Of a DNA stretch of 64,000 nucleotides, positions 30,791-44,684 are shown one piece after another. The stretch lies in NCBI RefSeq assembly GCF_024502345.1, contig NZ_JALDNN010000001.1; one strand, 5' to 3'. Source of the stretch: Escherichia coli. GTDB lineage: Bacteria > Pseudomonadota > Gammaproteobacteria > Enterobacterales > Enterobacteriaceae. Position 1 is the stretch's first letter. Every line of letters starts with the position of its first letter. A model generated the notes under the pieces. That model did not search any database, was not told the DNA's origin, and worked only from the letters and a program-made list of their open reading frames with translations. A program made the translations under genes and the position numbers.

Positions 30791-30902
30791 AACTGAAGTT
30801 GCCCTGAAAATGAAATTTTTTTGCACAACCGCAGAACTTTTCCGCAGGGCATCAGTCTTAATTAGTGCCACTGCTTTTCTTTGATGTCCCCATTTTGTGG
30901 AG

Positions 30903-30946
30903 CCCATCAACCCCGCCATTTCGGTTCAAGGTTGATGGGTTTTTTG
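30903..30946 (+). terminator. intrinsic terminator after ybjL
   Basis: hairpin cccatcaacc...ggttgatggg followed by TTTTTTG. Confidence 0.7.
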
Positions 30947-30964
30947 TTATCTAAAATTTATCTA

Positions 30965-42260: not shown

Positions 42261-43589
42261 TTACTGCCAGCTAATCTGAGCCCTGCCGTTTTTCTTACTC
42301 TTATACAGCCGCTCATCCGCCAGCATTTTCAAGCGTTCGACGGTGGTACATTCATTTGAATGCGCTACACCGATACTGGTACTTAAATTAATGCTTCCCA
42401 CCTGGAAATGAACGATTTCTTTTAGAATCGATAGCAACTCTTCCAGCGTTCCACCCGTATAAATCACCGCAAATTCGTCACCGCCGAAGCGGTAGATTTT
42501 ACCTTTATCTACCGGGATCTGTGATTTAAGGATTTTCACCACTTTCATCAACACTTCATCGCCCAGCAAATGACCGAAGGTGTCGTTAATGTTTTTGAAT
42601 TTATCGACGTCAAACAGGCACAAATAACCGCCTTTTTCCGGCAGCGCTTTTAAATCTTCGTCAAAGGATTTTCTGCCCATTGCTTTGGTCAGGTCGTCCA
42701 GGAACGCCGAGTTATACATACTGTAGAGTTTTTTGACATCGGCAGCCGAAAAGAAAAGCCCGCCATCCAGTACGCGTTCAAAATGGTTATTAATGATGGC
42801 TTCTTTCTCCACAATACCACGATTAATCACTCTGCGTACCAGATAGAGGCAACTGGTACCCGATATCACTGCCACCAATGCGGCAAAGAAAATAATCAAT
42901 GTACAGACCCGCAAATAAACATCTTTTTTATATGCAAATACGTACAATCCGGTCGGCAAATAGGCGAAGTGCTCCATCGCTTCCGAAACGGTGAAGATGG
43001 CGTTTTTAGCATTATATTCATCACCGGTCACCGGTTTACCGTTCTTAAATAGAGAGAACATCAGGTTCTCGCTGTCCATCGCCAGCGATTTTGACAGTAA
43101 AGAAAAACGCTCCAGACCAAGCAAAAATATCAGACTACGATTGTGAGTTACCGGATAGAGGTAATAGACGAAGGTTTTACCGTCAAAAGAGATAAACCCT
43201 GTATTTTTGACATGTCGATACTTCACAACCTGCATAATATCTGCACAATAATTTTTCTCGAACTCCTTTACCTGAATACATTCGTCACTGGAAATCAGAT
43301 AAGGACCGACATCGTACAAATAAGAGGGGGAAACCGAGTCGGCGTAAGCTGTGCGCAAACCAACCAACAGCTGTTCCTCCGTGGGATTTAGCGTGTTGAT
43401 AAGATCAATTGCCACGCTACGCCGATATTCAGCAATATTTGCCACCGCAAAAGCAGTATCAATAACGGACTGTTTCAGGCTATACACCCGTTCCTTTACC
43501 ATTTGAGTGTAGATCCCGCAGGCTACTGCTGAAATCATGATAAAAATCAGCAGACTGACTGTAAGTACGAACTTATTGATTCTGGACAT
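42261..43589 (-). CDS. dgcI: membrane-anchored diguanylate cyclase DgcI (YliF)
   Basis: 442-aa ORF; N-terminal TM segment and C-terminal GGDEF motif (RFGGDEF). Confidence 0.85.
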
Positions 43590-43907
43590 ACGTAAACTAC
43601 TCTTTTACTAATTTTCCACTTTTATCCCAGGCGGAGAATGGCATGGGTTTCTGGTACAGATACCCCCGAGCCTGAACACATCCTAATTTAATTAATTCGC
43701 GCGCAACGTCTTCGCTCTCTACGCCTTCCGCAATCACCGGGATCCGGTTATAGCGTGCCAGATCGAAAATAATGCGCACAATTTTTCCCGCAGTACCGAA
43801 AATATCGCCGGTAAATTGCGAGTCCACCTTTATGCTGTCTGGATTAATTTCATAAAAACGTTTCAGGTTTGACAAACCGGTGCCAAAGTCATCAATCGAT
43901 ATCCGTA

Positions 43908-43916
43908 CCCCTTGTT
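43908..43916. repeat. IS1 target-site duplication, copy 1 (ccccttgtt)
   Basis: identical 9-mer directly flanks the other IS1 end at 44685..44693. Confidence 0.9.
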
Positions 43917-43931
43917 GGTAATGACTCCAAC

Positions 43932-44435
43932 TTATTGATAGTGTTTTATGTTCAGATAATGCCCGATGACTTTGTCATGCAGCTCCACCGATTTTGAGAA
44001 CGACAGCGACTTCCGTCCCAGCCGTGCCAGGTGCTGCCTCAGATTCAGGTTATGCCGCTCAATTCGCTGCGTATATCGCTTGCTGATTACGTGCAGCTTT
44101 CCCTTCAGGCGGGATTCATACAGCGGCCAGCCATCCGTCATCCATATCACCACGTCAAAGGGTGACAGCAGGCTCATAAGACGCCCCAGCGTCGCCATAG
44201 TGCGTTCACCGAATACGTGCGCAACAACCGTCTTCCGGAGCCTGTCATACGCGTAAAACAGCCAGCGCTGGCGCGATTTAGCCCCGACGTATCCCCACTG
44301 TTCGTCCATTTCCGCGCAGACGATGACGTCACTGCCCGGCTGTATGCGCGAGGTTACCGACTGCGGCCTGAGTTTTTTAAATGGCGGAAAATCGTGTTGA
44401 GGCCAACGCCCATAATGCGGGCGGTTGCCCGGCAT
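43932..44435 (-). CDS. insB: IS1 transposase InsB' (expressed as an InsAB' frameshift fusion)
   Basis: 167-aa ORF recognisable as IS1 InsB (…[47 protein letters not shown]…). Confidence 0.9.
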
Positions 44436-44629
44436 CCAACGCCATTCATGGCCATATCAATGATTTTCTGGTGCGTACCGGGTTGAGAAGCGGTGTAAGT
44501 GAACTGCAGTTGCCATGTTTTACGGCAGTGAGAGCAGAGATAGCGCTGATGTCCGGCGGTGCTTTTGCCGTTACGCACCACCCCGTCAGTAGCTGAACAG
44601 GAGGGACAGCTGATAGAAACAGAAGCCAC
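44354..44629 (-). CDS. insA: IS1 InsA (transposition inhibitor / N-terminal part of transposase)
   Basis: 91-aa ORF with zinc-finger Cys (CPSCSAT…CSHC) and HTH; overlaps insB' as expected for the -1 frameshift arrangement. Confidence 0.9.
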
Positions 44630-44684
44630 TGGAGCACCTCAAAAACACCATCATACACTAAATCAGTAAGTTGGCAGCATCACC

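Follow-up and report, generated by a model that had tools for sequence, protein, structure and literature searches.

Insertions of IS1 in gal and lac, known from classical mutants, exert polarity whichever way the element points, and rho mutations relieve this effect. The element prefers AT-rich targets, and the frameshift from insA to insB is rare. Fusion promoters created by IS1 have been described as well, at bla TEM-1 and acrEF (review, PMC9330008).

In the c-di-GMP network of E. coli, adjacent genes for a phosphodiesterase and a cyclase are few; the pair considered here, pdeI (yliE) and dgcI (yliF), is one of them, and its physiological function is ill defined. Of the four intact cyclases of Shigella flexneri, DgcI gave the highest c-di-GMP level upon plasmid expression (PMC11327459). 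The present analysis concerns a pdeI gene interrupted by IS1 in Escherichia coli (NCBI RefSeq assembly GCF_024502345.1, contig NZ_JALDNN010000001.1); "window" refers to the whole stretch of 64,000 nucleotides analyzed, and all positions are those of the window unless stated otherwise.

Genomic setting

The window extended from aqpZ to ybiT and was an E. coli-type chromosome segment. It was collinear with strain 873.10 (E. coli O18ac:H14) at 98.3-99.8% identity, and IS1 copies were the sole structural differences between the two around pdeI-dgcI. Over 25 kb, identity to the best-matching complete genome reached only 99.6%. Among the 55 reference genes compared, 53 were full length in the window, the exceptions being pdeI and ybiU. 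The order on the minus strand near the insertion was gsiD, pdeI, and dgcI, with rimO converging from the plus strand, and the pdeI-dgcI block was AT-rich (35-45% GC vs 52-55% in the flanks).

Several other features of the window were recorded. ybiU (60737-62008, plus strand), which encodes a DUF1479 protein of 421 amino acids in relatives, contained a premature stop and was broken into open reading frames for 236 and 174 amino acids; it was the only broken gene besides pdeI among the 55 compared. A pentapeptide-repeat protein gene (599 amino acids; 12068-13867, minus strand) between ybjQ and ybjP was intact, and its counterpart in strain 873.10, the closest complete relative, was disrupted by IS1. 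The aqpZ-lysO intergenic stretch (1101-1489) was unalignable with that of 873.10 (387 bp vs about 225 bp there), and this length difference probably reflects variable repeat content. Rfam matches above the gathering score were the RybB sRNA (30870-30948, plus strand), between ybjL and rcdA, and two REP-derived naRNA4 elements (18116-18196 and 55334-55411, both minus strand); the same scan found no RNA family in or near the pdeI::IS1-dgcI feature.

Structure of the insertion

The features of the locus are summarized in Table 1. All of the IS1-defining features that were examined were present: the length, the inverted repeats, insA and insB' together with the A6C frameshift motif (TTAAAAAACTC) and the DDE domain, and a target duplication, which was 9 bp long (8-9 bp being typical of IS1). 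The terminal inverted repeats, GGTGATGCTGCCAACTTACTGAT and GGTAATGACTCCAACTTATTGAT, were imperfect: of the 23 outermost positions, 18 agreed. This copy was 99.1-99.7% identical to copies annotated in RefSeq as IS1A/IS1B family transposase genes, including one (99.5% identical) annotated as an IS1B family transposase with programmed frameshift. The left end, which bears the promoter, faced the 5' part of pdeI, and the right end lay against the 3' remnant.

Table 1. Features of the pdeI::IS1-dgcI locus and their positions in the window
Feature	Position	Strand	Description or basis
dgcI (yliF), 442 aa, GAPES2 + GGDEF	42261-43589	-	Translation, Pfam; RFGGDEF present
Spacer between pdeI stop and dgcI start, 7 nt	43590-43596	-	Sequence
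pdeI 3' remnant, 320 nt with stop codon and duplication copy 1	43597-43916	-	C-terminal EAL part
Weak sigma70-like match, TTGTCA-17-TGAAAT	within 43847-43885	-	Lacks the key -11 A; chance level
Sigma54-like match, TGGCACCGGTTTGTCA (TGGCAC-N5-TGTCA)	43870-43885	-	2 mismatches; overlaps DDFGTG codons; chance level
Target-site duplication, copy 1, CCCCTTGTT (read on + strand)	43908-43916		Perfect 9-bp direct repeat
Complete IS1, 768 bp	43917-44684	-	IRL at 44684 end, IRR against pdeI remnant
insB reading frame, 167 aa, DDE transposase domain	43932-44435	-	Pfam DDE_Tnp_IS1, E=2e-78
insA, 91 aa	44354-44629	-	Pfam Zn_ribbon_InsA + HTH_Tnp_IS1
IS1 left-end promoter-like site, CTGCCA-16-TATGAT	44650-44677	-	Consensus scan; PWM 8.85
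Target-site duplication, copy 2, CCCCTTGTT	44685-44693		Perfect 9-bp direct repeat
pdeI 5' part, codons 1-679	44685-46722	-	CHASE9 + half EAL domain (translation, Pfam)
Candidate pdeI promoter, TTGTAA-16-TAGAAT	46809-46836	-	Best sigma70-like site between gsiD and pdeI; PWM 9.83; prediction
Other IS1 sites in pdeI (window-equivalent)	44869, 44942, 45201, 45585, 45893		Each with about 9-bp duplication
Other IS1 site in dgcI (window-equivalent)	42826		About 9-bp duplication

Since insA and the insB frame were both on the minus strand, IS1 was co-oriented with pdeI and dgcI. The first-pass annotation had located the element 327 bp upstream of dgcI in the same orientation: the coding strands agreed, and the distance from IS1 to the dgcI ATG was exactly 327 nt (43590-43916), namely, the remnant of 320 nt plus the spacer of 7 nt. 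Its description of pdeI as a same-strand gene directly preceding dgcI was borne out by this short spacer, and the coordinates also confirmed that IS1 now lies between dgcI and the pdeI promoter region, with only the 320-nt remnant left on the dgcI side.

When IS1 and one copy of the duplication were removed in silico, a stop-free pdeI of 2349 nt (782 codons) was restored, which differed from that of K-12 by 39 nt and 5 amino acids; the insertion point corresponded to codon ~677-680, and apart from the insertion the gene contained neither a stop codon nor a frameshift. Because of the 9-bp duplication and this exact restoration, the allele is a single simple IS1 transposition, which is probably recent.

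Loss of PdeI and integrity of DgcI

The pdeI frame entered IS1 by 5 nt and stopped at a TGA (44682-44680), giving a product of 680 amino acids. This product retained the CHASE9 sensor, the membrane and linker regions, and the EALxR, N, and ExxE motifs (EALCR, HINVS, and VEITE), but not the DDFGTG, KxD (IKVD), EGVE, and Q motifs, all of which were located beyond the insertion. Of the 236 positions in the Pfam EAL profile, 2-146 were found in the 5' product and 144-236 in the remnant, the coding part of which began just before DDFGTG and ended at the pdeI stop codon (43599-43597). The metal-binding and catalytic residues of YliE, tabulated previously (PMC3484386), are carried by the EAL motifs listed here. 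Since the EAL domain was split and the DDFGTG, KxD, EGVE, and Q motifs were missing, the truncated protein cannot act as a c-di-GMP phosphodiesterase, and, judged from its sequence, the inactivation of PdeI is certain. CHASE9 and a complete EAL domain were not found in one polypeptide, so that the gene, orthologous to pdeI, is here a pseudogene. In the earlier proposal that one insertion affects both genes of the pair, the part concerning the phosphodiesterase was hence correct: PdeI is lost, with the EAL domain cut at about profile position 146 of 236.

DgcI showed zero signs of decay. It differed from the K-12 protein by 3 amino acids, matched exactly an allele that is very common (listed in 41,364 index blocks of a public gene collection), and had the composition of a diguanylate cyclase, i.e. 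GAPES2 and GGDEF domains with an intact active-site motif.

Transcriptional organization of pdeI and dgcI

The 7-nt spacing between the two genes was also found in K-12 and in all uninterrupted loci examined, and no terminator-like hairpin was detected between them by a sequence scan. In the uropathogenic strain CFT073, warming from 23 °C to 37 °C increased the expression of pdeI (log2FC 2.94) and dgcI (1.41), with the flanking genes unchanged (gsiD, 0.57; rimO, 0.14) (PMC12890032). The two genes thus showed several properties expected of an operon: the same strand, a short gap, no terminator in between, and (in the CFT073 data) co-regulation distinct from the neighbors. Based on the gap, the missing terminator, and the joint induction at 37 °C, we infer that a promoter upstream of pdeI normally serves both genes, at least in part. 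Divergent homologues of yliE and yliF were adjacent at plasmid-borne cellulose (bcs) clusters as well. The supplements of SMRT-Cappable-seq contained zero entries for pdeI/dgcI, and no transcript map was found.

A Rho termination region (Rho score, 2.68) has been located in K-12 MG1655 at 873,644, a point 666 nt inside pdeI (PMC7815308, supplementary file 2); in untreated cells, the read count was 100 before this region and 30 after it (PMC7815308, bicyclomycin data). The K-12 position corresponds to about 46057 on the minus strand of the window. Premature termination may thus affect the pdeI-dgcI unit also when IS1 is absent. Rho termination inside pdeI of K-12 suggests that read-through to dgcI is already limited under laboratory conditions, and this limitation may leave little for IS1 to remove.

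Occurrence of IS1 in the pdeI-dgcI block

The exact pdeI::IS1 junction was found in 0 of 5,426 complete RefSeq E. coli genomes; apparent matches were in fact IS1 copies located 136-544 bp away and merged with the flank. On the other hand, the exact 680-residue truncated PdeI was called on 6 public contigs (ENA and Logan assemblies only). The three of these that were retrieved reached 27-140 nt into IS1 and were 99.93-99.98% identical to the window.

Insertions of IS1 into the block were recurrent, at many distinct sites and in about 2% of the complete genomes: 62 carried a co-oriented copy (within about 1.4 kb) and 45 a copy in the opposite orientation. Examples include strains GPEC1201, 40EC, ETEC4088, E4, M37H, and RM9513, and in each of the five strains with a mapped insertion in pdeI, the annotation shows an intact dgcI. 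An insertion hot spot was considered and rejected: the occupancy was only about 2.5-fold over the uniform expectation, a figure roughly calculated from a chromosomal load of about 11 IS1 copies per genome and uncorrected for clonality, and the block is AT-rich. The idea that insertion orientations betray selection for dgcI expression driven by IS1 was likewise rejected, given the 62 co-oriented and 45 opposite copies.

Predicted consequences for dgcI expression

Ribosomes on pdeI transcripts would stop 5 nt inside IS1 (in IRL). If the frameshift from insA to insB is rare, about 765 nt of RNA, from the end of insA to dgcI, would remain largely untranslated, which is the classical situation for polarity of IS1 by Rho-dependent termination. 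Any translational coupling over the 7-nt gap between pdeI and dgcI would also be lost. No intrinsic terminator was found by a sequence scan of IS1 in the sense direction. The RNA over IS1 and the remnant was G-rich rather than C-rich; such RNA is not an ideal rut substrate, and this counts against Rho polarity here. The net effect would be complete loss of PdeI together with a reduction in that part of dgcI expression which depends on the pdeI promoter and is induced at 37 °C; leak-through or weak internal starts would sustain a low residual level. On sequence grounds, loss of PdeI with a polar reduction, rather than abolition, of dgcI transcription appears to be the most likely outcome, and we hold it with moderate confidence.

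An alternative, which we consider rather unlikely but still to be taken seriously, is that dgcI is mainly transcribed from a promoter of its own, either at the junction or within the ~300 nt that end pdeI; its expression would then be essentially unchanged and the cyclase uncoupled from PdeI. Binding of RNA polymerase holoenzyme in vitro at the yliE-yliF junction favors such a promoter: gSELEX-chip detected the sigma54 holoenzyme in the yliE-yliF spacer with yliF as the target, and the sigma28 holoenzyme at the same site (PMC8743547, PMC5493296). Nevertheless, these signals were barely over the cut-offs (32% intensity against a cut-off of 30% for sigma54) and were obtained in vitro only, and the remnant contained no convincing sigma70, sigma54, or sigma28 motif. 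Motif scans of the remnant gave no sigma28 match and nothing above chance for any of the three factors, the sigma70- and sigma54-like matches in Table 1 included; for sigma54, 36 matches were observed in the whole window vs 44.8 expected. The published gSELEX site for sigma54 and sigma28 at the junction was located about 300 nt away from the sigma54-like motif of the remnant.

Several expression and phenotypic data also fit a separate dgcI promoter. Rho terminates within pdeI in K-12, and dgcI of CFT073 was induced less than pdeI at 37 °C; this smaller fold-change is also consistent with a second, constitutive promoter. In CFT073, deletion of yliF altered adherence, with no phenotype listed for deletion of yliE. 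In S. flexneri, pdeI is outside the six intact phosphodiesterase genes, yet disruption of dgcI has been reported to affect biofilm, and in E. coli dgcI has stayed intact in each of the five mapped genomes with IS1 in pdeI. A stronger version of this proposal assumes that IS1 removes PdeI while DgcI is still expressed from an internal promoter in the 327 nt before its start codon, and that the recurrent, independent hits reflect selection for rewiring of this c-di-GMP module rather than tolerance of inserts in AT-rich DNA. We regard this version as doubtful; if true, an antagonistic phosphodiesterase/cyclase module would have been turned by IS1 into a cyclase-only one.

Even less probable is the idea that the co-oriented IS1 drives dgcI, by read-through from insAB' or from a hybrid promoter at its right end, placing the gene under the control of IS1 with possibly higher expression. 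The orientation would permit this, no intrinsic terminator was detected from the insB stop codon to dgcI, and the fusion promoters of bla TEM-1 and acrEF provide precedents. However, the junction between IRR and the flank had no acceptable -35/-10 pair: no outward -35 in the end of IS1 was followed 16-18 bp away by a -10 in the flank, and the best candidate, TTACCA-16-TCGATT, scored 4.2 on a simple PWM scale, on which the IS1 and putative pdeI promoters scored 8.9-9.8 and matches of at least 4 occurred in the window at a rate of about 23 per kb on each strand. The sole promoter-like site of IS1 was that at the left end, which matches the position of the known insA promoter; that left-end promoter is weak and is repressed by InsA. 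Furthermore, IS1 entered the block in either orientation with no clear preference for one, which speaks against selection for dgcI being driven by IS1. The earlier suggestion that IS1 imposes its own transcription on dgcI thus found no support in the sequence.

Although E. coli carries multiple copies of IS1 and repeats are prone to misassembly, the probability that the placement of IS1 is an assembly artefact (e.g. a collapsed or misplaced repeat) is practically nil because three independent public assemblies share the left pdeI::IS1 junction, and the perfect duplication and the exactly restored reading frame also stand against it.

Comparison with known systems

The allele, with its predicted polarity, is a routine IS insertion, for which the proper annotation is a pdeI pseudogene and an intact dgcI. 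As a natural allele lacking PdeI, with DgcI expression possibly altered, it may be a tool to ask whether the pair is co-transcribed, and also whether it acts as a local signaling module.

Close parallels are the other natural IS1 insertions in the block, which involve the same element, a 9-bp duplication, and the same AT-rich two-gene target, and differ in site from the present copy. In Shigella flexneri, pdeI is likewise absent from the intact phosphodiesterase genes and dgcI is among the four intact, active cyclase genes; unlike the degraded region of the Shigella type, 53 of the 55 reference genes compared were intact in the window, which makes a suspected Shigella origin unlikely, and the comparison of pdeI itself relies on the gene status reported for Shigella. 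As in the fusion promoters of bla TEM-1 and acrEF, an end of IS1 points toward an intact gene from its upstream side; in contrast to them, dgcI starts 327 nt away, and no correctly spaced -10 follows a -35 borne by IS1.

The classical polar mutants of gal and lac differ from this locus in that the operon status of pdeI-dgcI is based on the 7-nt gap and co-regulation, with no mapped transcript, that polarity is a prediction here, and that a weak internal promoter is possible. They resemble it in the arrangement: IS1 in the promoter-proximal gene of a two-gene unit on one strand, a premature stop inside the element, and a long, poorly translated stretch before the distal gene. The allele is a new example of a thoroughly known event, an insertional pseudogene caused by IS1 with a likely polar effect.
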